A DNA stretch of 64,000 nucleotides, from the IMG/VR virus record IMGVR_UViG_3300013936_000011, positions 1 to 64,000 of that record; one strand, 5' to 3'. This document shows positions 94-61,002 of the stretch, piece after piece. The stretch comes from a virus (Duplodnaviria > Caudoviricetes). The notes under the pieces are model-generated. The model was not told the origin of the DNA and did not search any database. It was given only the letters and a program-made list of their open reading frames with translations. The translations under genes and the position numbers were made by a program. Every line of letters begins with the position of its first letter. Position 1 is the first letter of the stretch.

Positions 94-981
94 TTTATTC
101 GTCTCCTTTCTTTTGTGGCGATGAGCGTAAATTATTCATAATTTCGCGAATGCCACGTCCCCATCCCGAAGGGATTACCTTAATTATTTTTACTAAAAAC
201 GTAATATAAAGCAAATATACTAGGTAACATATTTATTAACTCAATATTTAAATAAAAGAAGCAATAAATCACAAAATCGTATACTTATATAGTAGTTATA
301 TCTCACTTACATAATACTATAGTACAGATAATATATAAAGATAATATTATACCATATATATACAGAAATGGTATTACTTGACATATAAGTACAGTATACT
401 TATACACATATACACAGTAGTCTTGTGCATAACATAGACACAAATATGTGTACATAATATAGTGTTCATATAATGTAGATATCATTGAAATACAAATAGA
501 ATTCAGTAACGACAGTACGTCCCCGAAGGGGTGTTATTAAGCGTATATGTACAGGCTTACGTATAGTTTACTTGGCATATTTTATCGCTTACTTGACATG
601 CTACTTACACGTAAATACTCGTTACAGTTCGTAGAAAGCACATGATACAGGTCAGTAGAATCCGTAGTTCAGTTCATTAAAATTACTGCTTTAGTTTCAT
701 TAAAATACGTACTTCAGATCATTAAAATCTGTACGGAGACTACCTCCTGCCGTTTATCGTTATCATTTTTACTTGGATTTGCCAAAACGACACTGTAATA
801 TGCGTTTAACCCCGCCTTTTTTACTTATTTGCGCCGATTTTTGCATAAACCTGAGTTTTCTACTCAGAATTCTACTGTTTCCAATGATTGCAGATCAAAT
901 GAGTACTGTTGATACTTCATTATGATCTTCCGTGCCGACAGGCGACCGATTAACTCCTCGCTAGCGCTCGTCGTTAATAAT

Positions 982-1004
982 GCTCGCTCGCTTCGCTCGC
1001 TCGC
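982..1004 (-). other. GCGAAGC-core DNA hairpin extended by tandem G.A mismatches (GCGAGCGAGC-GAA-GCGAGCGAGC)
   Basis: Read directly on the minus strand; a smaller sister CGAGC-GCTA-GCGAG lies at 957-970. Confidence 0.55.
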
Positions 1005-1182
1005 GCGTTATTCAGATGTATATACTATTCAGATAATTCCCTTTACAGTTTGTTGTATGTACTATATATGTGAGAGCATTAACTGTAAAGCTAAGCGCTA
1101 TTCAGAGCGCGCACATGTAAATTCGTAAGCGACAGCTTTTTATAAGCACGAGAGACATAAAGCCTCCCGTACTGTTATGTAA

Positions 1183-1347
1183 TTATGCAAATGCTTTGAT
1201 GTTTTCTATGTCAATTTCATATTCTACGTCCTTTAATGCTTCTTCAAGTCTTTCTAGTCTACTATTAGCTTCACCTTTAACGTATGCTTCTTTTATTAAG
1301 TTTTCTAAGAACATTCTCTTTACAAATAATGATTCTAATTTTTTCAT
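1183..1347 (-). CDS. Hypothetical protein, 54 aa (MKKLESLFVKRMFLENLIKEAY...), not in the ORF track
   Basis: ATG 1347, AGGGGG SD at 1360-1355, TAA at 1185-1183, hairpin element upstream and terminator-like stem at about 1146-1172. Confidence 0.75.
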   Translation of the reverse strand: MKKLESLFVKRMFLENLIKEAYVKGEANSRLERLEEALKDVEYEIDIENIKAFA

Positions 1348-1378
1348 ATCAAATCCCCCTGGTAAAAATAATATTATT

Positions 1379-1413
1379 CACAAAAATGTAAAGTATTGAT
1401 GCGCGACAGCGCA
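1379..1413 (-). promoter_or_regulatory. Hairpin element, full copy (candidate phage RNAP promoter)
   Basis: + strand CACAAAAATGTAAAGTATTGA-TGCGC-GACA-GCGCA, upstream of gene 1183-1347; a short copy ATTCCAT-AGC-GACA-GCT follows at 1417-1433. Confidence 0.7.
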
Positions 1414-1437
1414 CACATTCCATAGCGACAGCTTTTT

Positions 1438-1470
1438 AAAAAAAGAGAGTAGGCCTAAGCCCACTCCCTT
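1438..1470 (-). terminator. Intrinsic terminator
   Basis: Minus strand AAGGGAGTGGGC-TTAG-GCCTACTCTCTT then a T-run, just after the stop of 1477-1989. Confidence 0.75.
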
Positions 1471-1476
1471 GTCTGA

Positions 1477-1989
1477 CTATTCTAATACAAAGCTATCAGG
1501 TGCAGAAGCTCTTTGTACTGGACATATCTTGTCCATAGCTTCCCATGTTCTAGCAAGTATCTTTTGTAGTCTTTCAGAACCATATCTTCTACCTTCATAT
1601 TCTCTAGGTCTTACAGAATAACTAGATAGTACAGATACTCTATCACCAAGTTGTTCACATATGCTATGTATAACTTTGATGTTTTCTAAGAATTCAGGTT
1701 CTAATACTTTATCACCTGCTTTAGTTTTGCCAGTATCTAACCATATTTGTCTATTTTCTGCTTTGTCGATACCTATCATACTTCTGTTTAATATGAAGAT
1801 ATATTTTTTATCTGTGTCAGCTTCTTCAGCAACTTTTTCTAATTGTGATGCTAATAGATATGTCATGTAACCTCTTATGTCTTCTACATTAGAGTATTTT
1901 TTACATTTACCTGTTTCAGTATTAGATACAAGTACTATGTCTTTTCTGTTAACCATACACATTATAGTTTCTTTTGAATATTTAGCCAT
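1477..1989 (-). CDS. Hypothetical protein, 170 aa; paralogue of the N-terminal domain of 5355-6176
   Basis: ORF with AGAGG SD; by-eye alignment to the 273-aa protein. Confidence 0.85.
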   Translation of the reverse strand: MAKYSKETIMCMVNRKDIVLVSNTETGKCKKYSNVEDIRGYMTYLLASQLEKVAEEADTDKKYIFILNRSMIGIDKAENRQIWLDTGKTKAGDKVLEPEFLENIKVIHSICEQLGDRVSVLSSYSVRPREYEGRRYGSERLQKILARTWEAMDKICPVQRASAPDSFVLE

Positions 1990-2074
1990 TTTTATACCTC
2001 TTTCTGTGCATTATGCACATTGCATGCTCGACGACATGCTACCAATTAATTATTATATGGAGGGGTTAACCTCT

Positions 2075-2110
2075 CACAAAAATGTAAAGTCTTCGTGCGC
2101 GACAGCGCAT
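2075..2110 (-). promoter_or_regulatory. Hairpin element, full copy
   Basis: CACAAAAATGTAAAGTCTTC-GTGCGC-GACA-GCGCAT upstream of 1477-1989. Confidence 0.7.
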
Positions 2111-2180
2111 ATACAAATTAACAAGGACCAGAGTGTACATGTACAATGCTCCAGTCCTTATTACTATTTATATGTTACTT

Positions 2181-2975
2181 CTATAAGCTTCTAGACATGA
2201 TAGAAGTTTGTTTCTTGTCACCATGGATTAGTCTTTTAAAACCTGCAACTGCTCTTTTAGCTGGTTCGTATTCTGTAAACTCTTCACGAGTTATATTACT
2301 AAATACTTCGTCAGCAAAAGTAGCACCAGCTTTATATGTAGCTTTAACTGCAGTAGAAGTAGTTAAACCAGCATATTTACCAGCACATTCAGCTAGAGGA
2401 GTTACGATATCATTAGCTACTATCTTAGCACTAGAATAACCAGTAGTAGTAGCAGATTGAACTAGCTTTTTAGTTTTAAGACCAACTGATTTCATAGAAG
2501 TAGTTCTATTTAAAAGTTTTATTTGGTCTTCTGTTAAACCAACTGCTAATAATGATATCTTGCAGAAAGTGAACATACCAGGAGCTACTGGTTTCATAGA
2601 TACATGAACATCATATACACCAGCTGATTTAAAAACGTCGTCTACGATTTCTTTAGCTCTTGCTTCATTTTCTACAGTGATTTCGAAGCTACCAAGTAAT
2701 AACTCACTATTACCATCAAGTACTTCGAAGTTTTGAGTCATTGCTTCATCAGCATAAATGTTTTCAAGTAAACCATCAGCTTTTCTGTTATAAAGTAAAG
2801 CTTCGATGATTCTAGCTTGGTTAAAAGTTAAAGATTCTAAGTCATATTTAATTAATTTATTTGGGTCATTATCTAAAACTTCTACACCTTCAAGTTCTTC
2901 ACCTAATACAGGTTTGAAAACATTATCTAGTATTTCTTGCATTGTGTTGATATTACCAATCATAATTCTTAACAT
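2181..2975 (-). CDS. Hypothetical protein, 264 aa
   Basis: Long ORF, GGAGG SD, stem-loop downstream at 2123-2159. Confidence 0.85.
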   Translation of the reverse strand: MLRIMIGNINTMQEILDNVFKPVLGEELEGVEVLDNDPNKLIKYDLESLTFNQARIIEALLYNRKADGLLENIYADEAMTQNFEVLDGNSELLLGSFEITVENEARAKEIVDDVFKSAGVYDVHVSMKPVAPGMFTFCKISLLAVGLTEDQIKLLNRTTSMKSVGLKTKKLVQSATTTGYSSAKIVANDIVTPLAECAGKYAGLTTSTAVKATYKAGATFADEVFSNITREEFTEYEPAKRAVAGFKRLIHGDKKQTSIMSRSL

Positions 2976-3012
2976 AAAAAATTACCTCCTAAAATATATA
3001 AAAATTTTATTA

Positions 3013-3126
3013 CACAAAACTGTTGAGTCTTCGTGTACGACAGTACACAGTATTCAGCCCCGACAGGGGCTACTTGAGAGCAACTATTCAGAAGTAGTCC
3101 TCTAATGAATTCGAGCCCGACAGGGC
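3013..3126 (-). promoter_or_regulatory. Cluster of three hairpin elements (one full, two short)
   Basis: CACAAAACTGTTGAGTCTTC-GTGTAC-GACA-GTACAC (3013-3048); GTATTC-AGCCCC-GACA-GGGGCT (3050-3071); ATTCGA-GCCC-GACA-GGGC (3109-3126). Confidence 0.7.
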
Positions 3127-3134
3127 GGGGGGTT

Positions 3135-3296
3135 CTATAGTAGAATAGAATTGATTTCTACCATAGAACATTTCACTTCAAGAGACCAACCTGCTGGTGT
3201 CTTTCTGATAATATTTCTTATGCCTTTTCTACTAAGGGCGATAGCTACGCCCTTTAAAGATTCAAAACTTTCAGAAAATAAATAGTTACTGTACAT
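3135..3296 (-). CDS. Hypothetical protein, 53 aa (MYSNYLFSESFESLKGVAIALSRKG...), not in the ORF track
   Basis: ATG 3296 with AGGGGG SD; TAG at 3137-3135; directly follows 3318-3503. Confidence 0.6.
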   Translation of the reverse strand: MYSNYLFSESFESLKGVAIALSRKGIRNIIRKTPAGWSLEVKCSMVEINSILL

Positions 3297-3317
3297 AATA
3301 CTTCCCCCTTTATAGTA

Positions 3318-3503
3318 TTAGTTTAAAGCTTTCAATTCGCCTTCTTCATCTATTATGTAACCAAGATCACGAAGACGTTTTTCAGTTCTTTTGATTACTG
3401 ATTTGCATTTCTTTCTGAATTCTTCACTATAGTTGTCAGGATTAAGAATCATATCTGATTCCAAATCTATTATATTATTGTACATATCAAGTATTTCACT
3501 CAT
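3318..3503 (-). CDS. Hypothetical protein, 61 aa
   Basis: ORF with AGGAGG SD. Confidence 0.75.
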   Translation of the reverse strand: MSEILDMYNNIIDLESDMILNPDNYSEEFRKKCKSVIKRTEKRLRDLGYIIDEEGELKALN

Positions 3504-3538
3504 TATAATAGCCTCCTTTCAAATAAAAAAAGGAGTGC

Positions 3539-3799
3539 TTAAATGCACTCCTTGTAATAATGCATACAATCTTTTACAAGATCATATACATTAGTTATAT
3601 GGCTTAAGTAAAATATCTTTTCTGTCTTGAAATCTTTAGGGTCTTGCATAGACTCAAAGAATTCATATTTATCTGATTCATCTGGAATAATGATAGACGG
3701 TTCACCATTGTCTTTAACAGTGTAAAAACAGATGAATTTATCATCTACATCTACTGCTCTAGTTCCAAGGGAATCAACACTAACAATAACTTGTTTCAT
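3539..3799 (-). CDS. Hypothetical protein, 86 aa
   Basis: ORF with GGAGG SD and upstream hairpin element. Confidence 0.8.
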   Translation of the reverse strand: MKQVIVSVDSLGTRAVDVDDKFICFYTVKDNGEPSIIIPDESDKYEFFESMQDPKDFKTEKIFYLSHITNVYDLVKDCMHYYKECI

Positions 3800-3829
3800 A
3801 ACAATACCTCCAGTAAATAATATTTATTT

Positions 3830-3863
3830 CACAAAACTGTATTGTATTCGCGTGCGACAGCAC
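3830..3863 (-). promoter_or_regulatory. Hairpin element, full copy
   Basis: CACAAAACTGTATTGTATTCGC-GTGC-GACA-GCAC upstream of 3539-3799. Confidence 0.7.
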
Positions 3864-3871
3864 ATAATAAT

Positions 3872-3912
3872 AATGGAAGAGAGCTTTTAAGGGATAAACT
3901 CTCTAGAACCCA
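3872..3912 (-). ncRNA. Repeated structured element, type A, copy 1 (possible pseudoknot at an mRNA 3' end)
   Basis: Minus strand TGGGTTCTAGAGAGTTTATCCCTTAAAAGCTCTCTTCCATT; related copy at 4648-4683. Confidence 0.4.
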
Positions 3913-3918
3913 TGTTGT

Positions 3919-4230
3919 CTATAAAATGTTAACTTTTAAAAATGTCATCTTAAATCCGTCAGGTAGTTTAGTAGCACCCGCAGGTAATCTACCTCCTACT
4001 ACTTGTGCAACAATCAAAGTGTCATGTGGTGTTAAACTGACAGAAACACGGTTGCAAGCAACGTCTTTACCAAGCATATCTGATAGTACAGCAGCTGTAT
4101 CAGGATGTCCTACTACAGATACAAAACCTGCAGTTTTAACGTCGTCTATAGATATTGGTTTGATAGAAACAGTGTGTGCAACAGTACAGTCTAACATTTG
4201 AAGTGAAAAAGCATTACCTAAATATAACAT
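3919..4230 (-). CDS. DUF1874 / STIV B116-like (YddF-like) protein
   Basis: Family pattern recognised: YLxNAFSLQML...SVVGHPDTA...NRVSVSL...LIVAQ..GGRLPxG; GGAGG SD. Confidence 0.8.
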   Translation of the reverse strand: MLYLGNAFSLQMLDCTVAHTVSIKPISIDDVKTAGFVSVVGHPDTAAVLSDMLGKDVACNRVSVSLTPHDTLIVAQVVGGRLPAGATKLPDGFKMTFLKVNIL

Positions 4231-4277
4231 ATAAATACCTCCTTGCCATTTAAGGCTAATATAACATTAAAATAACG

Positions 4278-4303
4278 AAGCAGTTTAACGACATGCTTAG
4301 GTC
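4278..4303 (-). ncRNA. Repeated structured element, type B, copy 1 (compact pseudoknot candidate)
   Basis: Minus strand GAC-CTAAGCAT-GTC-GTTAAAC-TGCTT; related copy at 13059-13085. Confidence 0.45.
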
Positions 4304-4311
4304 ACAATGAT

Positions 4312-4578
4312 TTATATATATTGATCTTCTTCTTCGTCACTTACGATTTCTCTATTTTTATAGCAGTATCTCATCATATCAGATAAAATACATTCGTCTT
4401 TACAAGTTGATAAGTTTAAGCAGAATAAAACTTCAAATACCATACAGTTCCAACCATATGTTTTTTGACATGCTATTCTAGCTTCTTCAGTTGTTTCTGC
4501 AGATACAATAAATTCTGCAAATTGTACACCATTATTGTGACTAGTTAAGTATTTAGCTCTAACAAAATATTTATTCAT
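4312..4578 (-). CDS. Hypothetical protein, 88 aa
   Basis: ORF with GGAGG SD. Confidence 0.8.
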   Translation of the reverse strand: MNKYFVRAKYLTSHNNGVQFAEFIVSAETTEEARIACQKTYGWNCMVFEVLFCLNLSTCKDECILSDMMRYCYKNREIVSDEEEDQYI

Positions 4579-4607
4579 AATAAAACCTCCTAATAAATAA
4601 TAATATA

Positions 4608-4643
4608 CACAATATTGTTAAGTATTCGAGCCCGACAGGGCTT
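4608..4643 (-). promoter_or_regulatory. Hairpin element, full copy
   Basis: CACAATATTGTTAAGTATTC-GAGCCC-GACA-GGGCTT upstream of 4312-4578. Confidence 0.7.
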
Positions 4644-4647
4644 ATTG

Positions 4648-4683
4648 AATGGTAGGAGCTTTAAGGGTAAACTCCTGAACCCA
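4648..4683 (-). ncRNA. Repeated structured element, type A, copy 2
   Basis: Minus strand TGGGTTCAGGAGTTTACCCTTAAAGCTCCTACCATT. Confidence 0.4.
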
Positions 4684-4720
4684 CACATTATTACCATCAT
4701 GTGTGAGGATGGTCTTGTTT

Positions 4721-5251
4721 CTAGTATTCAGACATTTGTCCAGTTGGACAATTATCATAATCTTCACATTGATGACAGCTGCCACCTATACAGTGACCGT
4801 CTACAGAAGGTCTAATTTCATCAGACATGACTGGTTCTTCTTTAGTGTCTGGTCTAACTGTAAAGTCTTTTAAAAGCATATCGTCATAAGCTTTTTTGAA
4901 TCTAGCTACATAATATTGAACAGATTCAAAGAATCTTTTAGTCCATGTATTATGTAATAAGAACACTTTAGAAGCTTTAGCGTATACTTTAATTAATACA
5001 GAATTCCATTCACCTTTCATAGTCATGTAAGCTCTGTTTAAATCAACTGCGGCGTCTTTTGTTTCGTCAAGAATGAATCCAGATCTTAGACAAGCTTCAA
5101 TTATGTATTCTTCTTTTATTTCTGTTTTTTCTTTTAAACTAGTTCTAATGTCATTTAATACTTTAACGTCTTCAGAATCACATAATACTTCCATTTTATC
5201 TAATAATTCATTGATACTCATTCTTTCTTTTTCAGTTAATAATATTTTCAT
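4721..5251 (-). CDS. Hypothetical protein, 176 aa, with C-terminal Cys cluster (CxxxxCxxCxxxxxC)
   Basis: ORF with GGAGG SD. Confidence 0.8.
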   Translation of the reverse strand: MKILLTEKERMSINELLDKMEVLCDSEDVKVLNDIRTSLKEKTEIKEEYIIEACLRSGFILDETKDAAVDLNRAYMTMKGEWNSVLIKVYAKASKVFLLHNTWTKRFFESVQYYVARFKKAYDDMLLKDFTVRPDTKEEPVMSDEIRPSVDGHCIGGSCHQCEDYDNCPTGQMSEY

Positions 5252-5310
5252 AATAATACCTCCGATTTAATAATAATATAGGAGAGAAGACTACTAACTA
5301 GCAATCTCCT

Positions 5311-5346
5311 CACAAAATTGTTTAGTATTCGTGTCTGACAAGACAC
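5311..5346 (-). promoter_or_regulatory. Hairpin element, full copy (T-A closing pair)
   Basis: CACAAAATTGTTTAGTATTC-GTGTCT-GACA-AGACAC upstream of 4721-5251. Confidence 0.7.
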
Positions 5347-5354
5347 ACTGCTTT

Positions 5355-6176
5355 CTAGAATGGAATTTGATCGTCAAAACCAGCAAATGGATCTTCACCA
5401 GAATCATCAAAGTCATCTGTGAAATCATCTGCATTAAAGTCTACCACTTCAGATTCTATTACTTGTGATTGTACAGGTTGAGATTTAGGAGCTAAAGTAG
5501 ATACAGGTTGTTCTATAACTGGTTCAACAATTGGTTGTTCAGGTTGTGCTACTGGTTGTTGTTGAACTGGTGCTGGATTATTACCCATAATACCTGCTAA
5601 TGCTTGTGCTACTGCATTTTGTATCATAGCATTAACTTGTTCTTGAGTAAACCCTTGTACAGGTTGAGATGCAGGTTGAGATTGAGTTTGACTATCTTCA
5701 ACTTGTACTTTATATAACACATCTAAAGCTCTTTGTTTAATCTTGACCATTTCTTCATCGACACTAGCTAAAGATAAACTATATATATTCACATTGAAGT
5801 TTCTGTCATTATATGCTTTAACTACATGTTTCATTTTATCTAGCATATATACAGGTATAATATCACCAGAACCAACGAATTTTTGTGTTCTGATATATTG
5901 TCTGAATGATGCACCGAATACACCTTTAATACAGTTAGGTATACCGATATCGATAACAAGTTCAGATATTGTGTCATTAGTAGGACATTTTTCTAATATG
6001 TAATCTAACGCTTCAAGTGAATTCATAATAGCATTTTTATTGTGATTAGAAAATCTTCTGAATTTATGCTCATCAGACATTAGTATTGCTATACCATTAC
6101 CTGCTACAAGAGCATATCTCTTTCTGTTACTATCTAAAGTAACACTTGATTTTTTATTGTTGTTGTAAGTAGCCAT
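5355..6176 (-). CDS. 273-aa protein with Gln/Pro linker and SSB-like acidic C-terminal tail (...DPFAGFDDQIPF)
   Basis: ORF with GGAGG SD; C-terminus matches the DDxPF tail of bacterial SSBs. Confidence 0.8.
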   Translation of the reverse strand: MATYNNNKKSSVTLDSNRKRYALVAGNGIAILMSDEHKFRRFSNHNKNAIMNSLEALDYILEKCPTNDTISELVIDIGIPNCIKGVFGASFRQYIRTQKFVGSGDIIPVYMLDKMKHVVKAYNDRNFNVNIYSLSLASVDEEMVKIKQRALDVLYKVQVEDSQTQSQPASQPVQGFTQEQVNAMIQNAVAQALAGIMGNNPAPVQQQPVAQPEQPIVEPVIEQPVSTLAPKSQPVQSQVIESEVVDFNADDFTDDFDDSGEDPFAGFDDQIPF

Positions 6177-6223
6177 AATAAGTACCTCCTAAAAAATAAA
6201 AATAACAGGTTACAAAAAACCTT

Positions 6224-6260
6224 CACAAAACTGTAAAGTATTCATGTGCGACAGCACATG
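6224..6260 (-). promoter_or_regulatory. Hairpin element, full copy
   Basis: CACAAAACTGTAAAGTATT-CATGTGC-GACA-GCACATG upstream of 5355-6176; a degenerate copy lies at 6350-6383. Confidence 0.7.
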
Positions 6261-6387
6261 CCCCTAGTGAGAGCCAATATTCAGTAACGGCCCCGCAGGG
6301 GAGTAATCACAAAAATGTACTACTGATATTATGATTACATATAATACTTCACAATACAGTTAAGTATTCCTCATACGACAGTACATA

Positions 6388-6414
6388 TAGAATAGAGCCC
6401 GAAGGCTCATTCTA
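6388..6414 (-). terminator. Terminator-like stem with a cUUCGg loop
   Basis: Minus strand TAGAATGAGCC-TTCG-GGCTCTATTCTA overlapping the stop of 6412-6951. Confidence 0.55.
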
Positions 6415-6951
6415 TTGCATGATTTCAAAAGGAGAAATGTAGAATTTCTTTCTCTTGTAATCTGCGTATGTAACTGTGCGCAACTGCCAGTATATCTTGA
6501 TACGTGGCTTTGAATCTGGTATTGTATACCAGATGTATTTAACTCTGTTGCGCCAGTAAGGTTCAGTTCGATATTCTTGTCCTCTTTCAAGGTAATATCG
6601 AACTCCTTGAGGAACTTGCGATAAATCGTATTCAATGTAAGCGCCGTAATCTCCGATTACTAGTCGCTCAAATGAAGTAGCGATTAACTTGCCATCATGT
6701 GTGTATAATGGCTTACTAGGATCTAGATGTAGCATATCAGTGTATTCTTTGTAAATAGCTCTGATTTGCTCACTTTTCCCAGAAGCTAGCTTTTTGTAAT
6801 TTTTCGGATTCTCAAAGTCAAAGTTAAATTCATCTTTGAGTCTGTAAATCATATCTCGCTTAATGCAAGATATTTTTTGAGAGTCCGTAGCAGGGCAAGG
6901 AGTAGGGCAATCATAGTTGAAGCATTCCTCGCAAATTCTTATATCGATCAT
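6412..6951 (-). CDS. Hypothetical protein, about 179 aa, N-terminal Cys cluster
   Basis: Track ORF 6412-6960; GGAGG at 6964-6960 favours the ATG at 6951. Confidence 0.8.
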   Translation of the reverse strand: MIDIRICEECFNYDCPTPCPATDSQKISCIKRDMIYRLKDEFNFDFENPKNYKKLASGKSEQIRAIYKEYTDMLHLDPSKPLYTHDGKLIATSFERLVIGDYGAYIEYDLSQVPQGVRYYLERGQEYRTEPYWRNRVKYIWYTIPDSKPRIKIYWQLRTVTYADYKRKKFYISPFEIMQ

Positions 6952-6982
6952 AAAAGACACCTCCGAATAAAAGAATAAATTT

Positions 6983-7017
6983 CACATAACTGTATAGTAT
7001 TCCCACGCGACAGCGTG
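6983..7017 (-). promoter_or_regulatory. Hairpin element, full copy
   Basis: CACATAACTGTATAGTATTCC-CACGC-GACA-GCGTG upstream of 6412-6951. Confidence 0.7.
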
Positions 7018-7050
7018 AGAAATTAATACAGCTATAATAATAAATGCAGG

Positions 7051-7458
7051 CTAAATGCCTACATTTATTATTTTCTTATGATGGCTTTCTGCATATTTAA
7101 TACAGTTATAAGTACCGCCTTTTTTACTACCATCATAAGCAGTAACTACGAACTTGGAATTATCGACCATATAATGGTTTCTAATATCCAATTTCTTAGC
7201 GATACTATAATTGCCAGTATAGCCATCAACAGTGTCGACATATATAACTTTATCTGCTAATTTCAGCATACGGTTATATCTATCGACACTTTCAGCGTTC
7301 CAACGGCCTTCTTGACCTTTAAAAGGAACAGCTAAGATATTCTTTACAGGATAGCCTTTAGATTTGACATATTCAACTGCAAAGAAAGCAACAGTATCAA
7401 GTCCTAATGCACCACCAGTAATAAAATTATCTACACTATATTTAGTATGTAGATTAAA
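7051..7458 (-). pseudogene. SLOG family (YspA/DUF1273-like) frame lacking its N-terminus and start codon
   Basis: The frame of track ORF 7051-7269 stays open to 7458 and reads FITGGALGLDT...LAVPFKGQEGRW...RNHYMVDNS...YDGSKKGGTYNCIKYA; TAG at 7461-7459 immediately upstream. Confidence 0.7.
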
Positions 7459-7900
7459 CTAATTGATACATTTTATCATCTTTAACAGTTATCATACCAG
7501 GCATCCAGTAGATAAACTCTGTATTTTTAAATGTATCAATTAGTTTTTGAATAAGGCCTCTACGTTGTTTTGCTAGAAACACAAGTTGTAAATCGTTGAG
7601 ACTGTATTCATAGTTACTACCAAGGATACTACGTAGAGACTCAATTTGTTTTTGAGTACAGCCTCTACGATCACGAGTATCTTTGATAAATGAACATTGT
7701 ATATCGACAAATCTGTCATTAATGATGATATCACGAATGACTTTACCAATAATATAGTCTGTATTATCACGATTTCTATCATAGATATATACAGTTTTAT
7801 AATCGAATAATTTAGTAAAGTCACTATCATCTAATAATTCTGGATTTGCGACTAACACACCTTGATATTCAAACATTTTTTCTTCAAATACTCTAATCAT
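7454..7900 (-). CDS. Hypothetical protein, about 148 aa
   Basis: Track ORF 7454-7930; GGAGG at 7911-7907 favours the ATG at 7900. Confidence 0.75.
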   Translation of the reverse strand: MIRVFEEKMFEYQGVLVANPELLDDSDFTKLFDYKTVYIYDRNRDNTDYIIGKVIRDIIINDRFVDIQCSFIKDTRDRRGCTQKQIESLRSILGSNYEYSLNDLQLVFLAKQRRGLIQKLIDTFKNTEFIYWMPGMITVKDDKMYQLV

Positions 7901-7927
7901 AACGTACCTCCTATAAATATAAAAATT

Positions 7928-7971
7928 CACAAAAACGTGTAATATTCGTGGCGACAGCCACAGCGACAGCT
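7928..7971 (-). promoter_or_regulatory. Hairpin element (spacing 1 nt shorter) plus a tandem mini-hairpin
   Basis: CACAAAAACGTGTAATATTC-GTGGC-GACA-GCCAC then AGC-GACA-GCT, upstream of 7454-7900. Confidence 0.65.
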
Positions 7972-8011
7972 TACAGATAGAACAAATAACAAGCGGCCCC
8001 GCAGGGGGCTA

Positions 8012-8392: not shown

Positions 8393-8403
8393 GCTATCAC
8401 CCC

Positions 8404-9042: not shown

Positions 9043-9071
9043 ATCATTTACCTCCAGTAATTTAAAATAAT

Positions 9072-9100: not shown

Positions 9101-9124
9101 AAAAACAACTAAACTTACATATAA

Positions 9125-10894: not shown

Positions 10895-10909
10895 GAAGCA
10901 TGATGATGA

Positions 10910-13027: not shown

Positions 13028-13058
13028 GTTATTACCTCCTACTAGGAAAAATATATTC

Positions 13059-13085
13059 AAGCCTTTTTAGGGCATGCTCAGGCCC
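13059..13085 (-). ncRNA. Repeated structured element, type B, copy 2, in the leader of the RNAP gene
   Basis: Minus strand GGGC-CTGAGCAT-GCCC-TAAAAAG-GCTT. Confidence 0.4.
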
Positions 13086-54600: not shown

Positions 54601-57600
54601 ATAATAGAACTAGGTAGTTATGTACAAAAGAAAGACTATAACCTACGTCATGCTTTATCATATTTAGAACAAGGTATTTCCGAAGTTCGTGAAGCAAATC
54701 CAGAAGCTGGAGTTATTAGATCAACTGCAAAACGTGGAATAAAAACTAATTATTTAATGAGTAAATACAGAAATAATCTAACTCCTGAAGCGATGGCAGA
54801 AACCATGAAAGGTATAGGTAAAACCGTAGATGTATCTTCAGCAAAGGGTACAGAGAGAAAGAAAATGGTTGAAAAACTAGTCAACAGCTTTATCATAGAT
54901 GAAGGCACTTTCTCTAGAGATTTAAAAGCATTGCATGGTTCAAACACTGACGCCATAGAAGATACTATGTTAGCATATCGTACATTAAAGAAACAATATG
55001 GAACATTTGTTAATGACTTAATAGATGCTGCAGGTAACGTAGATATGAATTTAGTATTTAATGAAAAGTCTGGCAGACTATTTGTTCAAAAAGGAGAAAA
55101 GATGGTCGACTTAGATAATATAGCTAGAATTATAAGCGACCAAGGTGCTTTATATGGTAAGAGTGGAAGTCAAAGACTTGCTATACACCATGTACTAGAA
55201 TATGATCAAAGAGCGAAGGCTTTAAAATATAGAACTAATTTAGATGACCATTTCGGCGGAATGAAGACTTTAGTTAAAAGAATTGATAAGTTAGCTGAAA
55301 AGGGCGAAGTAGACCTTGACTCATTCAGAAGAGCTGTTGGTAAATTACAAGTTGATCTTAATGAAGCTCCTGTTTATAAATATAATTATGGTTCTTTATT
55401 ATTAGCTAATAGCCCAGTTGATATAAGAGGAGTAGATCCATTATATCCTGAACTATTTAAAGAAGATGGAGAATTCCATAGCATTATAACTCGTATGAGT
55501 AATAACGATAAATTCAATGTTGATGATTTACAAAACATAATGGAAAGAAGAATACCAGAGTCTTTAGAGCCTGGTAAACTTGATCCTATGCAAAGATCAT
55601 TAATGTCTCCAGACGTAGTCCCTATACTACAAGAGTTCAATAGAGCTACTACTAATAACTCTGTTGTCGATAGAATATTAAAACATATAAATGATACTGG
55701 TAAAGAAACTAAAGAGACTAAAGGTATAAAAGTAGTCAATGAATTGTATATTCCACAAGGCTCTGGAGGATTTGATAACTATGGTCGTCCAGTATCAGTA
55801 TCTGCTTTTAATAGAAACTGGATAAAAGCGAACACTATAGAAGAAGCTAGTAAGACATATGAAAATCTATTAATAGGTGCTAGAGTTATAGATACTAAAC
55901 AAGTACATGCAAACATATATAAAAATGTTAAAGAAGTCGGTAATCTAGCAGGTGACTTTGCAATAAGACAATTAAATATGTCAAACCAAAACATATCTCA
56001 ATTAGTTAAATACAAGAGAAATTCAGTAATTGATTCTATTATAAATAAATATTCAAACGATCCAGATAGAAAATATATAGCAGATGATGTTGAACAAATA
56101 ATGTCTGAAGTGGAACATATAGTAAGAGGTTCTGTATATGAACAAGGTAAACTTATGGACCCTGAATTATTTGAAAGACTTATCGGAGATAATCCTCAAG
56201 ACGTTAGAAAGATAAGTTATAACTTAAATGCTATTCCTGCTATAGAAGCTATGCTTGAAAGGGAAGATCCTGAGAAATTAATCAAGACTAAAATCCCTCA
56301 AATGAGGGAGATGTTTGGTGAATTAAAGAGAGACGAAAATGGACATTACAGATATGTTAAGACTCCTGGTACTATTATTAAACGTGGAGAAACTATATTC
56401 CCTTATGAAGCATTCGGCGATATAGAAAAGAGATTCGGTTCTAAATTCCCAGAGAGTGTATTAAGTCTGAAGTTTAGAAACAAAGAAGGTATTGAATTAT
56501 CTGAAGCCGAAATATCAAAAATTATAAATGATACTTTTGGTAAACAGGATATTGATATAAAAGATGTAATCAATCTATTTTCAAATGGCGATGAGTTTAC
56601 TGCAGCATATGAAGTAGCGCATATTTCTCAACAAGAATTACCTAAGACTTTCTCTAACAGTGCTGAAAAATCTATGACTCGTATACCATATGCAAAAACT
56701 GGTTCGCACGATCCGAGAATAAGAAAGATATTAACTGATACTGAAAATGATCATTGGGTTAAAAATATTGTATTGAGAGATGAGACTCTTGATGCTTGGT
56801 ATCATGATTTAGAAAAAGCTTATAAAGATGGTGGCAAGACAGCAAAAGATATTCTTAAACAAAATGGTTTTGATACTATACAAGATTTAAAAGAAGCTGC
56901 TAAACGCGAAAGATTACTTTATCGTGATTTTGTATTTGGTGAAAATAGTATATTTGGCATGGTATCTGTAATAGCTAATGATAATGTTACAGGCCATGAA
57001 AATATGGGTCATCAAATGTCTAGTGCATTAGGTGAAGCTATAAGACTTACTGGTAAATACACAGCTAAACCTGGTGCTAGCAATACTGAACAATGGGAAT
57101 CAGGTATAAATAAAGTAGCTGAAATAATAGCTTCCGATCCTAAGAAATTTGGCTTTATAAGAGAAATGGATAGTAGCAAAGGTGTAAATGAAGCTAAGAC
57201 ACTTGATATTTCTCAAAACCTATCATTGCTATTTAGTACAAATACATATGATAAAAATAAAAAAGGCATTGAAGTATTAGACTCTGAAAAGATAGTTAAT
57301 TTATTCAGAGAGATAGATAAAACTATACTTAAGAATGCTCCAGAAGAAGATAGACTAGTTCATACTAATCTTGAAGGTGTAGATGAATTAGTTGGAGCTG
57401 TTAAGACAATAACTGTAGACGGCAAGAGACATGCTATTGGTTCTGTAGGTGTTACTTCTACTGCATTTGCTGAAGATTCAGAAGTGCAATCTGGTGTCAG
57501 TCAAGAATATCTTGATGCTAAAAAAGCTTTAAGACAATACACTCATATGTTGGATCAAGTAAAGGCTATTAAGCCTGAAGATCTTACAGAACAACATATT

Positions 57601-60600
57601 AACTTGCTTAAGATTCTACCAGAGAGAATAGAAGAAATACGTAACGAAATAGATGCTATGTCTGACGGTGCTGCATTTATGAAAATAGATGATCAGCTTA
57701 GAAACATACTTAGTAACTCAGCTTTAAACAGTACTACTGAAAGACGTTTAAGTAATTTAATTGCAAACAGTAGTGATCCTTATGGGTATACTAAATTGAT
57801 AGAAGAAGCTTCTGATAAGTTAATAGCTCGTAATAAAGATGGAGAATTTGAAATAAATAAAAAGTATAAAACAGATAATGTCAATAGACCATGGCTAGAA
57901 GATGTTAAACAACAAATTACTTTCAATCCATTAGAAGAAGACGAGTTAACTGAAAAGATGTTAAAGGAAGAAGAATACAGACATCTTGAGCCTATATACA
58001 ATGAAGTAGTCAGAAAACGTGGTATGAAACTAGGAACTGATAGCGCCGAATTATTCTATCAAGGTAATATCGCTTATGCTGGTGCTAAATTTAATGCTGG
58101 CGGAAATGTTGATTTACAGCCTTTATTAGACAAAGGAGTTGAAGTTGTACCTGCAGAAAAATATGTAGGTAATCTTGGCAGAGCTTCAGCTGGTCAATTT
58201 GTAAGCTCATATGCTGACAAAACTATATTATTAGACTTAGGTGAAAACTATGCTAATATGTCTGAAACAGGAAACAGATACATAGCAGTACCTGGATTAG
58301 GTAATGTAGTGAACAGTCAAGAAATTAAAAGAGATTGGCAAAAGACTGCAGGCGCTTTAGCTAATACATGGCAAGAATGGTCTAACCTAGGATTTAATGA
58401 TACTGAAGAAGGTCTTAGATTAGTTAGCAGAATGGATGACTTATACGATAAATTAAATACTGAAAGTCAACAAATAGTTAAGAAAGGTAACGTATTTGCA
58501 GAGAAAGCGAAAGTAAGAGTTAATGCTCCTGCACAACGTCTTAAAATACAAGCTACTCTTGGCGAATCAGAACTTCACGATCCATTAATAGATAAGATAA
58601 GAGCAAATACTCCTGATAATTATAAGGTTGATGAAGACTGGTTCAGAGACAATGCGACAATATTAGGTAAATCAGTATCTGAATGGGAAAAACATGGTCC
58701 TAATGGTCCTAGCTTATATTATAACTACAGATTATCATCAATGTCAGACTTCCAAAATAAAGGTTATTTTGATTATGATTTCATGAGACAAATGGGATTC
58801 ACTAAGAAAGATGCTAGTGGAAACATGGTACCTATTACTGATAAAACTGAGTTACGAAGTGAAATGATAAACTATTTAAAAACTCATGGTACTATGGATA
58901 TCTCAGACCGTTATCCTAATATATATGATACATCTGCACTTACTAACTATACATTCTTAGACACAACATTAGCTGATAATGCTACAGCTATAGCAGGACA
59001 TACTTTATCTAATCTTAATGGTGACCTTGACGGTGATTCAGATTCAACAGTTAAAATAGCAAAGAATAACGTAAACTATCTTTTATATAATAAGCATAAA
59101 GAAGATTCTATGGCACAAATGAAAGCTGATTTAAAAGCTCAAAACATAGATATAGATTCTTTAGACAAAGATATGGTTGAAGAAAACTTACGTAGAAATA
59201 CTATTCAATCAATGAAGCAAAATAATGTCAGAGGTACTGCTGAAGAACTTGGCGAAGCTTATGATTTCTTTAGAGGAAAAGAATTAGAATCTATTAGAGT
59301 CGCTGTAGATAATGCTAAAGTTGTAAGAGAAAACGTAGCAGAGACACTTGCTAAAGATAGTGGTAGAGCTTATAAATCTATGGCTTTATCAGTAGATGGT
59401 AAAAACTTGTTAGCAGAAGTAGAAGGTGGACGTTCATCTCTTGGTAGATTAAGAACGTTTAATAGAAGAGAAAACGTTGGAGCTGGAGAATTAGTTAAAA
59501 GCGATAACGAATTAAAAGATTATTTCGCAGAAGCTGTAAATGTATTAGATAAACAACCTGATTTATTTAAAGGCGAAAAGTTTAAATACGTTGAAGGCAT
59601 GAGAGAAATAGGAGATAAAGAATCTGCTAAGACTGTTGTTTCATTTGGTAATAACCAAAGAGAAGCTTTAGATGAAATGCTTTACATATTACAAAAGAGT
59701 GGTAGTCAGATGGCTGACCAAGCAGAAACTGCAGCACTTGGAAGAATTCAACAAAATAAATATGTCGAATCACTATTATTCAAAGGTTCTAAAGATGCCA
59801 TAGGTTTGGTTGATGCTCAATTATATGCTATGAAGCAAGCATCTGATAATTACTTTGCTCAAGCAGAAAAAGATACTGAACGTAGATTAAGATTATCTGG
59901 TATGAGCGAAAGTGAAATCAGAAATAGTCCTGAACTAAAATCTATTGCATTAAAAAGAGGAAATATAACTTTATTCTCTGGCGGTTCAGAACAAGATATT
60001 ATATCAGCTAAAAAGCTTAAAATGTACGCTGGTGATGATCGTTTCATGTCATTTGGTGGAACAATGCAATCAATAAGAAGTGGTAGAGCTACACAAGAAA
60101 CTCGTGAAGACTTCTTAGATTGGTTCGAACGTTACGGTAAATTCTCTACTGTAGCTAGTCAATTTGATACATGGGCAGATGATGGTACATTAAGTGAATC
60201 TATGATTAATAAAGCTTCTTCTTATATTGATAAATATGAAAAAGAAGGCGTTAAAGATGCTGCTGAAAAAGGTAAAGCTATGTATCTTGCTGAACACTAT
60301 TATGATACTATAGATACATTAAATAAGAATAATGAAAGCTTTAGAGCAGATGCTAACTTATTTGCTGTATTCGGTAGAAATGGTGGTAGCGTAGAAAGAT
60401 TAGTTAATGTAGAAGGAGCTTCTGGTGAGAGTCACACAGCTTTAATACAAAGTTTATTAAGTGGCCAAGATGTATCTTATAAAGACCATGACTTTGAAAA
60501 ACAAGGCACTAGAGTTATGGCAGATAGATTAAAGAATATAAATAACTTTAAGAACATTACTAAAGCTAGTAGCGAAACATTAGAACATATAGTTGAAGGT

Positions 60601-61002
60601 GGCAAAGATAGTTTATTAAGTAGCCCCGCTTCTATAATAGGATTTAGTGCTATCGGTTTAGCTATAGGTGTAGCTGCTGCAGGATATGCAGGTGGACCAC
60701 TTAAGAAGAGTAAAGCTGTTCAAGACGAACAACAACAAAGACAACAAACAGACGATAGAATGACTGTCCCTGAATTTTTTGACAATCAAGGAGGCTTTGT
60801 TACAGGAAATTCACAACAGGGCTATATTATCAATATCAATGCTAATACTAAGAAAGGTGAACGTCATATGAAGAGAGCTATGAAAGAAGCTGTATCAGCT
60901 TCTGTTGGTGGCGCAGTAAGTATAAATATGAATTTCAAAAGTAATAGTAGTGGTGGATGGTCAGATAAAGATATCGAAAAAATAATTAATAATTATATGT
61001 AA
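51655..61002 (+). CDS. Giant two-barrel RNA polymerase (candidate virion RNAP) with an N-terminal DEDDh exonuclease domain, about 3115 aa
   Basis: Exo motifs GYDLET, VGHNIRGFD, AHSAGND; polymerase motifs PKTFSNSAEKS (K-x7-K), RYP, NLNGDLDGD (DLDGD at 59023-59037), EQDIISAKK; ATG at 51655 preferred to the track GTG at 51643. Confidence 0.8.
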   Translation: MANFNKNITIYDNKYSVVKGRRADGTFRSGSETLADRQKRVSTKFADDITAIQDFVDTFANQSKVIFRDDNTLVLKTSHKPFDRVEESEAAKKALDILNTNKFFNTITNKTSPSNVTLKYHNLANINTTASYDNMSHVFDKYQNIIKSNGTIVGYDLETLGGMSDGIWNPLGITEFGINKQHIVNGKVAKTTSENIMLSGTVNHTAELNKIRAVLMSPNGAKKLAEDPQYRGLLVSAKRYSMYGHKDTKIHFDGKKGYGVIDSFVGEKGEAWGNLEQITAGVNKFINIEKQASQAIDEASGLRKDVKTSIDYIFDIMKTGNDQHGLVVGHNIRGFDNAALNQYVKKLYNSDKAAQKYITSKMGILGINTPGFHLGPIAQADSLNFSRVVNNKNYMGALLDVSDRGRQILAQAGRGINKQENIGAVFFPHLFEGAMAHSAGNDTAVVNAFFTHRFTEDYLKKIGIDQDAIGTFKGKTLIEAMNDMMGSFDNAVDIKANRQQIFMANKTMNGSFGGKKVFNFTRDSQGNIITSTGHFINPNGGIEYNPVHGKQIGVVRNQPYTIVNYGSVNTSQYSGQLANLVPEFATDEAYYLNLEQVVGDKYKSRTNPTQTTMLFSTKEEMEGFIDSYLTPFAESTTGGGYKYLGNRKVAESYAKQYMLTDKGLEFNQQQWNSMFEAEQIKGALNSNFERRYEKKAAENFLFGDKSAKRIGESLDFIEYLNKKNLSAMTADDLGRIYYNKYSGMKVGNVEITKNLADEIRENIKDTFGFHPRDENGKPLEKKILLDATADNAIASFEHVKEQEKYYRNALNTVFKAHNINPSQHGSYGVTIAKSGQVMAAINNDFITLNDALSVPVANSVGEFMDLSEKGVRNLALNADTQLMPKALVDNMYEFKLSKDFYFNKKASNINGLMSPKEYQNIIQYSLDSSDPGMNFIDKLIKIQTGATRQLTETERIQSGRQVFYQFVNDELSKDKVLSKNQHIIELGSYVQKKDYNLRHALSYLEQGISEVREANPEAGVIRSTAKRGIKTNYLMSKYRNNLTPEAMAETMKGIGKTVDVSSAKGTERKKMVEKLVNSFIIDEGTFSRDLKALHGSNTDAIEDTMLAYRTLKKQYGTFVNDLIDAAGNVDMNLVFNEKSGRLFVQKGEKMVDLDNIARIISDQGALYGKSGSQRLAIHHVLEYDQRAKALKYRTNLDDHFGGMKTLVKRIDKLAEKGEVDLDSFRRAVGKLQVDLNEAPVYKYNYGSLLLANSPVDIRGVDPLYPELFKEDGEFHSIITRMSNNDKFNVDDLQNIMERRIPESLEPGKLDPMQRSLMSPDVVPILQEFNRATTNNSVVDRILKHINDTGKETKETKGIKVVNELYIPQGSGGFDNYGRPVSVSAFNRNWIKANTIEEASKTYENLLIGARVIDTKQVHANIYKNVKEVGNLAGDFAIRQLNMSNQNISQLVKYKRNSVIDSIINKYSNDPDRKYIADDVEQIMSEVEHIVRGSVYEQGKLMDPELFERLIGDNPQDVRKISYNLNAIPAIEAMLEREDPEKLIKTKIPQMREMFGELKRDENGHYRYVKTPGTIIKRGETIFPYEAFGDIEKRFGSKFPESVLSLKFRNKEGIELSEAEISKIINDTFGKQDIDIKDVINLFSNGDEFTAAYEVAHISQQELPKTFSNSAEKSMTRIPYAKTGSHDPRIRKILTDTENDHWVKNIVLRDETLDAWYHDLEKAYKDGGKTAKDILKQNGFDTIQDLKEAAKRERLLYRDFVFGENSIFGMVSVIANDNVTGHENMGHQMSSALGEAIRLTGKYTAKPGASNTEQWESGINKVAEIIASDPKKFGFIREMDSSKGVNEAKTLDISQNLSLLFSTNTYDKNKKGIEVLDSEKIVNLFREIDKTILKNAPEEDRLVHTNLEGVDELVGAVKTITVDGKRHAIGSVGVTSTAFAEDSEVQSGVSQEYLDAKKALRQYTHMLDQVKAIKPEDLTEQHINLLKILPERIEEIRNEIDAMSDGAAFMKIDDQLRNILSNSALNSTTERRLSNLIANSSDPYGYTKLIEEASDKLIARNKDGEFEINKKYKTDNVNRPWLEDVKQQITFNPLEEDELTEKMLKEEEYRHLEPIYNEVVRKRGMKLGTDSAELFYQGNIAYAGAKFNAGGNVDLQPLLDKGVEVVPAEKYVGNLGRASAGQFVSSYADKTILLDLGENYANMSETGNRYIAVPGLGNVVNSQEIKRDWQKTAGALANTWQEWSNLGFNDTEEGLRLVSRMDDLYDKLNTESQQIVKKGNVFAEKAKVRVNAPAQRLKIQATLGESELHDPLIDKIRANTPDNYKVDEDWFRDNATILGKSVSEWEKHGPNGPSLYYNYRLSSMSDFQNKGYFDYDFMRQMGFTKKDASGNMVPITDKTELRSEMINYLKTHGTMDISDRYPNIYDTSALTNYTFLDTTLADNATAIAGHTLSNLNGDLDGDSDSTVKIAKNNVNYLLYNKHKEDSMAQMKADLKAQNIDIDSLDKDMVEENLRRNTIQSMKQNNVRGTAEELGEAYDFFRGKELESIRVAVDNAKVVRENVAETLAKDSGRAYKSMALSVDGKNLLAEVEGGRSSLGRLRTFNRRENVGAGELVKSDNELKDYFAEAVNVLDKQPDLFKGEKFKYVEGMREIGDKESAKTVVSFGNNQREALDEMLYILQKSGSQMADQAETAALGRIQQNKYVESLLFKGSKDAIGLVDAQLYAMKQASDNYFAQAEKDTERRLRLSGMSESEIRNSPELKSIALKRGNITLFSGGSEQDIISAKKLKMYAGDDRFMSFGGTMQSIRSGRATQETREDFLDWFERYGKFSTVASQFDTWADDGTLSESMINKASSYIDKYEKEGVKDAAEKGKAMYLAEHYYDTIDTLNKNNESFRADANLFAVFGRNGGSVERLVNVEGASGESHTALIQSLLSGQDVSYKDHDFEKQGTRVMADRLKNINNFKNITKASSETLEHIVEGGKDSLLSSPASIIGFSAIGLAIGVAAAGYAGGPLKKSKAVQDEQQQRQQTDDRMTVPEFFDNQGGFVTGNSQQGYIININANTKKGERHMKRAMKEAVSASVGGAVSINMNFKSNSSGGWSDKDIEKIINNYM

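Follow-up and report, generated by a model that had tools for sequence, protein, structure and literature searches.

The DNA stretch examined here (the window) comprises positions 1-64,000 of the IMG/VR record IMGVR_UViG_3300013936_000011, a viral contig of 146.6 kb for which CheckV gave a completeness of 56%. Genes at 1-15 kb lie on the minus strand, and everything from 15.2 kb to the end of the record lies on the plus strand. The minus-strand early arm contains two adjacent genes, B716 and A566, with the sequence features of a split two-barrel RNA polymerase (RNAP), together with an array of intergenic hairpin elements; the plus arm contains a giant open reading frame (ORF) that carries a second set of two-barrel RNAP motifs. 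The first genes of the plus arm encode terminase, portal, major head protein and a 988-aa tail sheath, a set that identifies the phage as a myovirus. The sheath and a 2142-aa structural protein have only distant relatives (28-32% identity), which were found in Moorella phage MTATph1 and in 0305phi8-36-type Bacillus phages and indicate a Firmicutes host; by sequence comparison the phage is distantly related to both Bacillus phage 0305phi8-36 and MTATph1. Contigs labelled human gut metagenome that bear the same hairpin elements reach 262,744 and 263,913 bp, which makes this a jumbo phage of ~263 kb, and the window covers the early arm together with the head and tail genes of this human-gut jumbo myovirus. 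We consider it reasonably likely that the phage has two unrelated two-barrel RNAPs, that the giant one is injected and that the hairpins act as promoters for a phage polymerase.

The profile of B716 was searched exhaustively and 119 relatives were recovered. Residues K583, P585, E591, D648, D650 and D652 were invariant in 43 sequences sharing 16-27% identity, so that both the K/R-x-P and the DxDxD motifs of the catalytic barrel are present. The triad motif SDFDGDD occupies aa 647-653 of B716, and the chain stops 64 residues after it; where the YonO/RNA-dependent RNA polymerase (RdRP) family has one polypeptide, the remainder is here A566. The relation between the two parts was seen directly in P0109, a single chain of 1335 aa in which residues 22-726 correspond to B716 and residues 817-1249 to A566 (BLASTP 5e-21 for A566), which shows that B716 and A566 belong together. 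An earlier note on this DNA, written from the sequence alone, had proposed a second DxDGD polymerase split over two adjacent early genes, and P0109 bears this out. Of the 101 sequences representing the family, 54 stop no more than 130 aa from the triad, and another 44 run 590-800 residues further, the extra residues matching the size of A566, and the relative P0104 (27% identity to B716) has a 606-aa partner gene directly downstream. These findings show that the split is old and recurrent and always falls at the same place. They also indicate, at the level of sequence, that B716 plus A566 is a split YonO/RdRP-like two-barrel polymerase.

The Pfam signal was weak. PF05183 matched B716 with 12.1 bits (E 0.003 per genome), in the triad region only and under the gathering score of 23.8, and the control genome of B. 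subtilis, host of the SPbeta prophage that encodes YonO, likewise stayed under this cut-off. The model reached E <= 0.001 in three of the 43 sequences scanned (B716 and 42 relatives). One precomputed match graded 'faint' carries PF05183, and the Atlas feature matches of B716 fall in clusters in which 16-19% of members carry it. No meaningful match to B716 or A566 was obtained in Pfam and PHROGs scans, and B716 had none by blastn or tblastn against 50,697 phage records. In PDB sequence searches with the B716 and A566 profiles no polymerase was found, the sole match being a sub-threshold resemblance (E 0.2) of A566 residues ~125-165 to a LacI-type helix-turn-helix. The AlphaFold model of B716, with a mean predicted local distance difference test (pLDDT) score of 49, was too poor to search with and counts against the assignment.

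In the P23-45 polymerase gp96, whose triad occupies 779-783, the minimal active fragment (residues 327-1124) reaches ~340 residues further, and one that stopped at residue 1050 was inactive (PMC10770324). Because the active fragment reaches so far beyond the triad and the shorter one fails, A566 most likely supplies essential parts of the core and is not a mere accessory. The two chains would then assemble into one enzyme. Two terminator-like hairpins with a GATCAGnAATGGTC core and a T-run were noted on the minus strand of this operon, one (10869-10894) between B716 and A566 and the other (9077-9100) overlapping the annotated start of ORF 8404-9108; they could set the ratio of the polymerase halves.

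The giant ORF is probably translated from ATG 51655, the start favored because homologues are also 3115 aa long. Fifteen homologues of 2981-3119 aa, with identities down to 26%, were aligned with it, and 217 of 3119 positions were invariant in the 16 sequences. The GDxDGD motif (GDLDGD here, aa 2460-2465), which contains the DxDxD aspartate triad of the two-barrel superfamily, was among them, so the giant ORF with a DxDGD motif that the earlier note reported is real. The longest invariant run was DRYPNI (aa 2422-2427), whose P2425 lies 36 residues before D2461. An R-x-P motif ~33-36 residues before the triad is the arrangement exemplified by R446/P448 of Rpb1, and the invariant motifs of the giant correspond to the universal two-barrel polymerase residues listed by Ruprich-Robert and Thuriaux (PMC2919709). 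Upstream, a block resembling the beta subunit was read as sequence motifs with no profile match behind it: E1500 and K1668-x7-K1676 are invariant and collinear, and may be compared with Rpb2 D837, K979 and K987. We take the E. coli beta counterparts to be R678, E813 and K1065-x7-K1073, at similar spacing. K1676 and D2461 of the giant are 785 residues apart, and the corresponding path in E. coli, from beta K1073 through the end of beta to D460 of beta-prime, is presumably ~730 residues. The order and spacing of the predicted motifs thus resemble beta followed by beta-prime.

A fold model of giant aa 1850-2900 was compared with known structures; the alignments used for the fold models exclude the homologue P0096. 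In a second look with VIA, approximately 35 of the 50 best rows were largest subunits of multisubunit RNAPs (Z 5.3-6.8), from bacteria, archaea, plastids, Pol I and the phages AR9 (7s01_d, Z 6.8) and phiKZ (8que_A, Z 5.3). In these rows model residues ~305-625 were aligned with beta-prime ~20-470. Model residue 624 paired with residue 472 of E. coli beta-prime, 751 of T. thermophilus and 639 of Pol I A190, and the alignments stop there. By our reckoning, each of the three endpoints lies 8 residues past the third catalytic aspartate, and the model ends likewise (616 to 624). Foldseek with the same model gave Pol I A190 as top match, at a non-significant E of 0.33. A wide VIA search was dominated by coiled-coil matches to one helix pair and was set aside; the ESM Atlas shape search returned only noise, and the Atlas feature search with aa 1850-2900 gave no usable match.

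Several observations weigh against a polymerase in the giant. Where beta has an 'ED' pair the giant has EQ, the second acidic residue being replaced by Q. The model has a pLDDT of 61, with the catalytic loop below 50, and VIA Z scores of 5-7 are in a range that the tool calls common. The giant had no match in Pfam, PHROGs, PDB sequences or tblastn against the 50,697 phage records, and PF00623, PF00562 and PF05183 did not match it even at E 10 per genome; PF00623 and PF00562 had no match anywhere in the whole record. The lack of a polymerase-family profile match and the weakness of the model suit an explanation in which the giant is a tape-measure or ejection protein only, its DxDGD motif being an unrelated metal site, so that the phage would use the split polymerase alone and host RNAP otherwise; the giant also occupies the tape-measure slot of 0305phi8-36. 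We regard this as quite improbable, since it leaves unexplained the collinear two-barrel catalytic residues, with beta/beta-prime-like spacing and invariant at 26% identity, and a model register that fits the beta-prime catalytic loop in several independent structures. The model register at the triad and the invariant motifs are good, though not conclusive, grounds for ascribing to the giant, with high probability, a polymerase core of two-barrel type and fused beta-beta-prime organization.

Two further regions of the giant flank this predicted core. Near the N-terminus, six residues of DEDDh exonuclease type are all invariant in the homologues, and Pfam and PDB profile searches with this region gave no exonuclease match. 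Near the C-terminus, a hydrophobic segment has weak Bacteriocin_IIc and ZapG-like matches, and conservation in the last 120 aa is 0.6-0.7.

The placement of the giant in the tail module was observed by synteny. In 0305phi8-36 the gene order is sheath, tube, two chaperonins, ORF145, ORF146, ORF147 (endolysin) and baseplate, and ORF145 and ORF146 (the latter annotated 'hypothetical tape measure protein') are virion proteins by mass spectrometry. Upstream of the giant, the 2142-aa protein matched ORF145 with 30% identity (tblastn, E 3e-31) and had no meaningful match in Pfam and PHROGs scans. Downstream, the 2791-aa ORF matched the endolysin family PHROG 20474 (3e-38), and its position corresponds to that of ORF147. 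The giant, lying between the ORF145 homologue and the endolysin-domain ORF, is thus in the ORF146 slot, and from position and synteny we infer that it is packaged in the virion. A point against is that ORF146 lacks a DxDGD motif and is not detectably similar to the giant. P23-45, whose polymerase is fused to the tape measure, offers a suggestive parallel.

Two distant relatives show how this gene neighborhood varies. In L018 (ENA contig k141_2349360, 82 kb), the gene at 10001-19186 encodes the giant homologue P0098 (3061 aa, 26% identity), which reads through correctly only with TGA as Trp; this relative therefore appears, from its reading frame, to use a recoded genetic code. It keeps the three-giant-gene order, with products of 2128, 3061 and 3028 aa. 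In L019 (ENA contig k141_830691) the giant lies at 10001-18946 and is followed by a 3009-aa protein with an Endonuclease_NS_2 match. Positions 1-9356 of that contig contain replication genes (primase, DnaB) and no tail module, and two unrelated proteins of 600 and 567 aa are also encoded upstream. The pair formed by the giant and the next giant gene is more conserved than its tail context.

The earlier note had described both the giant and the split enzyme as DxDGD polymerases. Comparison of the B716 family with the giant family by hhalign and hmmsearch yielded nothing significant, so the two are not detectable paralogues and should not be read as two copies of one DxDGD polymerase; the giant resembles a fused beta-beta-prime enzyme, and the split one resembles YonO/RdRP. 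In three IMG/VR relatives the core of the giant (L020-L022) is 98% identical to that of the window, whereas their B716 (L006-L008) is only 71% identical, which points to different histories of the early and structural arms, through mosaicism or faster evolution of the early genes.

The third component is the hairpin array of the early arm. Read in the mRNA sense, each element consists of a stem, the loop CTGTCG, the second half of the stem and GAA starting 7 nt after the TGTC loop; in most copies GAA is followed by (T/G)ACnnnACAnTTTTGTGA, and the downstream box of most copies reads ACAnTTTTGTGA. There is one element per gene, each ahead of a small gene. Hairpins with a GACA loop and a stem of at least 4 bp occurred 13 times on the plus strand, compared to 3.1 expected from shuffled sequences, and outside 0.5-8 kb no element was found elsewhere in the 146.6-kb record. 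The earlier note had seen none at 8-15 kb or in the right arm, and this holds for the record as a whole. Covariation was examined in 28 distinct elements from the window and a relative of 64% identity. Stem pairs 1-3 were paired in all 28 with two to four pair types, the loop was invariant, and pairs 2-5 were paired at 0.90 compared to 0.50 in shuffles (maximum 0.60). These findings clearly show that the hairpins are under selection for pairing and, with the excess over shuffles, that the elements previously noted are real.

The distance from loop to GAA is constant while the stem varies from 4 to 7 bp, which makes hairpin and downstream box one element. GAA lies 9-11 nt from the loop centre, and this is the geometry of N4 early promoters. 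Folded as single-stranded DNA, the hairpins have energies of -4.7 to -7.3 kcal/mol. Terminator-like stem-loops lie just upstream of several elements (1470-1443, 6408-6395 and 8009-7996). This is an argument for termination followed by renewed initiation at these points, and against the GACA hairpins being the terminators. In the relative L014 some copies consist of the hairpin only, 10-20 nt ahead of a ribosome-binding site, so that any start would fall immediately behind the hairpin. Sigma-70-like sites at 1-17 kb were not enriched (77 compared to 83.5 expected), which leaves the simple view of the array as host promoters unsupported.

Conservation of the array extends to relatives with a polymerase of 64-71% identity and to 14 stretches of gut-metagenome contigs. 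It occurs together with both polymerases, including the giant, in three IMG/VR contigs, and hairpins and split polymerase were found together on every metagenome contig that reaches far enough upstream; an additional IMG/VR contig, a 32-kb fragment, is without the split enzyme. No contig with hairpins and without polymerases was found among the relatives examined, so that the co-occurrence proposed as a check on the earlier note was seen in every relative found. One relative of 187 kb has the array in its interior, with 30 kb of hairpin-free genes on the same strand beyond it, so that the array is a discrete block of 7.5 kb and not an end of the genome created by assembly. The block also contains a gene for a YpsA-like protein in relatives.

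The hairpins might instead act in RNA, as processing, stabilizing or protein-binding structures at the 5' ends of early mRNAs, with the promoter being the ACAnTTTTGTGA box or lying elsewhere. The loop and orientation are fixed relative to the mRNA, several of the hairpin-only copies in L014 stand 10-20 nt before the ribosome-binding site, and the stems on the mRNA-sense strand have slightly more G-T than A-C wobbles (3 compared to 1), which fits an RNA hairpin as well as a DNA one. Stems of 4-7 bp, however, are too short for RNase III, the terminator-like hairpins just upstream of several elements mean that transcription must restart, and the fixed 7-nt spacing from loop to GAA binds the hairpin to the downstream box. 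An RNA role is therefore hardly likely in our view, and the hairpins are treated here as candidate promoters of a phage polymerase, each driving one small early or middle gene, with a likely start ~11 nt from the loop centre given the fixed 7-nt distance from loop to GAA.

One of the small genes encodes a protein with the architecture of bacterial single-stranded DNA-binding protein (SSB), and two tandem hairpin elements (6377 and 6250) precede it. An SSB-type tail on an early protein had been noted before and was found again: the N-terminal domain is conserved and the linker variable, and the tip is DDQIPF or EEIPF in all three orthologues, the window's copy ending in DDQIPF and orthologues in EEIPF. 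It had no Pfam or PHROGs family. Binding of single-stranded DNA and borrowing of the tail for contact with host proteins are both possible. A second early protein with a short acidic C-terminal peptide is the 234-aa product of the gene after A566 (8404-9108, minus strand), which has the conserved acidic tail EDFDGDEF; its orthologues in L014 and L017 end in EFDASDF and EFDESDF, respectively.

The divergent region of ~210 nt at 15 kb, between the early and late arms, has hardly changed in relatives that retain only 64-68% identity in their polymerase, and its double TGATGTCA(A/G)TA motif is found nowhere else in the record. It is a candidate site for the first promoters. The late arm (131 kb, 75 genes) has just 9 gaps of at least 70 nt, which have no motif in common. 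Because the gaps are so few, this arm probably consists of a few long operons with very few promoters, read by a processive phage enzyme in the way that YonO reads the SPbeta late operon.

These elements suggest the following transcription program. The giant would carry a polymerase at ~aa 1380-2900, preceded by exonuclease-type motifs and followed by the hydrophobic segment, in a tape-measure or ejection-protein slot; packaged in the virion and injected with the DNA, it would start transcription. Its likely first target would be the operon that runs from the conserved 15-kb divergent region and includes the second polymerase. Once made, the split enzyme would read the hairpin block, including the gene of the SSB-tailed protein. 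The operon of the split polymerase (15.0 to 8.0 kb) contains no hairpin element, and since a non-virion enzyme cannot make itself, the split enzyme is given a modest preference as the reader of the hairpins, at about an even chance. The caution of the earlier note over which enzyme reads them was justified, and its positional reason is the one that mildly favors the split enzyme here. To our knowledge, the virion enzyme transcribes the genes of the non-virion polymerase in all characterized systems that have both, including N4 and phiKZ as far as known. In P23-45, too, the virion RNAP transcribes the gene of the non-virion RNAP (PMC10770324).

The N4 and P23-45 precedents also cut the other way, as the hairpins or dense promoter clusters there belong to the virion enzyme rather than to the second one. 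The hairpins could accordingly be promoters of the injected giant, the split enzyme transcribing the late arm as YonO does. N4 offers the precedent of single-stranded hairpin promoters used with an SSB, and the array has one candidate promoter per small gene, a single direction and a gene for an SSB-tailed protein. In P23-45 the promoters of the virion RNAP are densely clustered within a small pre-early block (PMC10770324), YonO transcribes the SPbeta late genes (PMC5467207), and the gap-poor late arm would suit a processive enzyme. Under this scheme, however, the hairpin-free operon at 8-15 kb would need host RNAP or a second type of virion-enzyme promoter, and the transcription of non-virion polymerase genes by the virion enzyme in characterized systems speaks against it. 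It is somewhat unlikely, and that something other than the split or the giant enzyme reads the hairpins is less likely still. Whichever of the two-barrel enzymes is the reader, we propose tentatively, and with less than even confidence, that it recognizes single-stranded DNA hairpin promoters of fixed geometry with the help of the SSB-tailed protein, which would amount to the N4 promoter mechanism having been invented a second time in the other polymerase superfamily, and that the giant represents a new family in which a fused beta-beta-prime enzyme is linked to a 3'-5' exonuclease and delivered through the tail.

Table 1. Coordinates of the features in the window
Feature	Position (nt)	Strand	Remarks
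Hairpin array	502..7978	-	16-17 elements; intergenic, gene-sense orientation
Hairpin loop starts	511, 937, 1131, 1405, 1427, 2101, 3039, 3062, 3119, 3856, 4634, 5337, 6250, 6377, 7009, 7953, 7965	+	
Early protein, SSB-type architecture	5355..6176	-	273 aa; globular N-terminal domain, P/Q-rich linker, DDQIPF tip
A566, C-terminal part of the split polymerase	9125..10825	-	Directly downstream of B716
B716, N-terminal part of the split polymerase	10910..13060	-	Probable start 13027, 705 aa; Asp triad at nt 11105-11119
Divergent intergenic region, early arm/late arm	14993..15204	.	Highly conserved; TGATGTCA(A/G)TA twice
Virion structural protein	45167..51595	+	2142 aa, directly upstream of the giant ORF; homologue of 0305phi8-36 ORF145
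Giant ORF, candidate virion RNAP	51655..61002	+	3115 aa from ATG 51655; 3119 aa from GTG 51643
N-terminal DEDDh-type exonuclease motifs	52120..52980	+	D160/E162, N335/D340, H441/D446; motifs only
Beta-subunit-like motif block	55786..56670	+	R1382-P, FEQ 1499-1501 (E1500), K1668-x7-K1676; residues invariant
Beta-prime-like region, aa 2154-2474	58102..59064	+	Ends in DRYPNI and GDLDGD; from fold-model alignment
Gly/Ala-rich hydrophobic segment near the C-terminus of the giant ORF	60610..60702	+	Followed by the most conserved C-terminal domain
Third giant ORF, peptidoglycan-hydrolase domain, tail lysin slot	61087..64000	+	2791 aa, continuing to 69462 of the record

Other features were noted in both arms. 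A 45-nt repeat is present in only two copies in the record, at 458-502 and 14508-14552 (71% identity), with TTGTAT and TATATG separated by 17 nt on the gene strand; one copy stands ahead of the gene at 13892-14404 and the other at the far end of the hairpin array, and the repeat may be a third type of promoter. The minus-strand early operon also encodes a DUF488 protein (PF22751, 2e-15) at 8012-8392 and a DUF3920/HExxH metallopeptidase-like protein at 13136-13798. In the tail module, a 912-aa protein (40094-42832) directly follows the 222-aa ORF that comes after the sheath gene, and its first 180 residues match PHROGs families labelled 'major head protein'. This label is probably misleading, because the corresponding 0305phi8-36 ORFs are noted as tail tube and tail tube paralogue.

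Four parts of this system are new: the giant family, which went unrecognized by the profile methods tried and matched none of the 50,697 deposited phage records; the presence in a single phage of two-barrel enzymes from two unrelated lineages; the division of a YonO-like enzyme into two chains, and the frequency of this form (approximately half of the family); and the hairpin elements as N4-style promoter candidates. Phage two-barrel polymerases are the best living models for the origin of cellular RNAPs, and few have been studied; the present group comes from human gut metagenome assemblies. The giant is a candidate for a minimal fused beta-beta-prime enzyme that must pass through a contractile tail. 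Split and fused YonO-like forms are about equally common and provide a natural map of a separable module, and the covariation of ~17 promoter-like hairpins already defines what is recognized. Should the reader of these hairpins be a two-barrel enzyme, the recognition of promoters as extruded DNA hairpins would be a general solution and not an oddity of N4, and work could begin on the promoter and specificity factors of YonO-type enzymes, which are still unknown (PMC5467207).

The overall scheme is already known from other phages, and it is its parts that are new here. The earlier note had read the locus as an N4 scheme rebuilt in another polymerase superfamily. Its list of parts stands, and an injected polymerase followed by one made later remains the most economical arrangement, but it is not the first such convergence: pairs of virion and non-virion two-barrel RNAPs are known from the jumbo phages phiKZ and AR9 (PMC7824862) and from P23-45 (PMC10770324). 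As in P23-45, where gp96 is the tape-measure-fused virion RNAP and gp64 the non-virion one (PMC10770324), the present phage has a candidate polymerase within a giant tail protein that also contains a hydrophobic segment, another two-barrel polymerase that would be made after infection and a small block of short genes, each with its own strongly conserved candidate promoter motif. In contrast, P23-45 is a siphovirus whose tape measure has the polymerase N-terminally, the two P23-45 enzymes are paralogous whereas those described here show no mutual similarity, and its non-virion RNAP is a single chain encoded inside the motif-bearing block, with promoter motifs that are not hairpins; here the enzyme is split, its genes are outside the block and the motifs are hairpins.

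Like YonO, B716 has the K/R-x-P and DxDGD barrel motifs and the context of a large phage of Firmicutes type, and its weak PF05183 signal is also seen in B. subtilis, the SPbeta host. YonO-like enzymes have been described as single chains with both barrels, and here the chain is cut after the triad. Such enzymes are known from 0305phi8-36 and Clostridium phage c-st (PMC2919709, PMC7824862); the B716-family profile gave no match at E <= 0.01 in the genomes of 0305phi8-36 and the Moorella phage. The giant may be likened, by description, to phi14:2 gp66 of the crAss-like phages and to NCgl1702, which are very large single-chain two-barrel proteins recognizable mainly by their catalytic residues. 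The former is packaged in the virion of a podovirus and is QDE-1-like; the latter is a 2169-aa protein like a beta::beta-prime fusion, encoded on the C. glutamicum chromosome and maybe derived from a phage or mobile element (PMC2919709). With phiKZ and AR9 the phage shares a virion and non-virion two-barrel pair (candidate here) in a jumbo myovirus, and the giant model aligns with their beta-prime-type chains. The RNAPs of those phages consist of 4-5 separate subunits that are detected by the Pfam beta and beta-prime models, whereas the candidate here is one chain inside a 3115-aa protein and invisible to these models.

There is also a functional likeness, in outline, to N4 (Schitoviridae), which has the virion RNAP gp50, a heterodimeric RNAPII, hairpin early promoters and SSB cofactors. 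Both phages have a giant polymerase or candidate of ~3100-3500 aa, here presumably injected, a second enzyme in two polypeptides, an SSB-type protein and promoter-like DNA hairpins whose stems of 5-7 bp stand a constant distance away from the start. N4, a podovirus, has T7-like, right-hand enzymes and three early promoters with loops of 3 nt, as opposed to ~17 copies with a CTGTCG loop here; the T7-like RNAP model PF00940 had no match in the record, although the control genomes gave none either. The likeness to N4 is thus one of function and not of descent, with no homology between the two systems.

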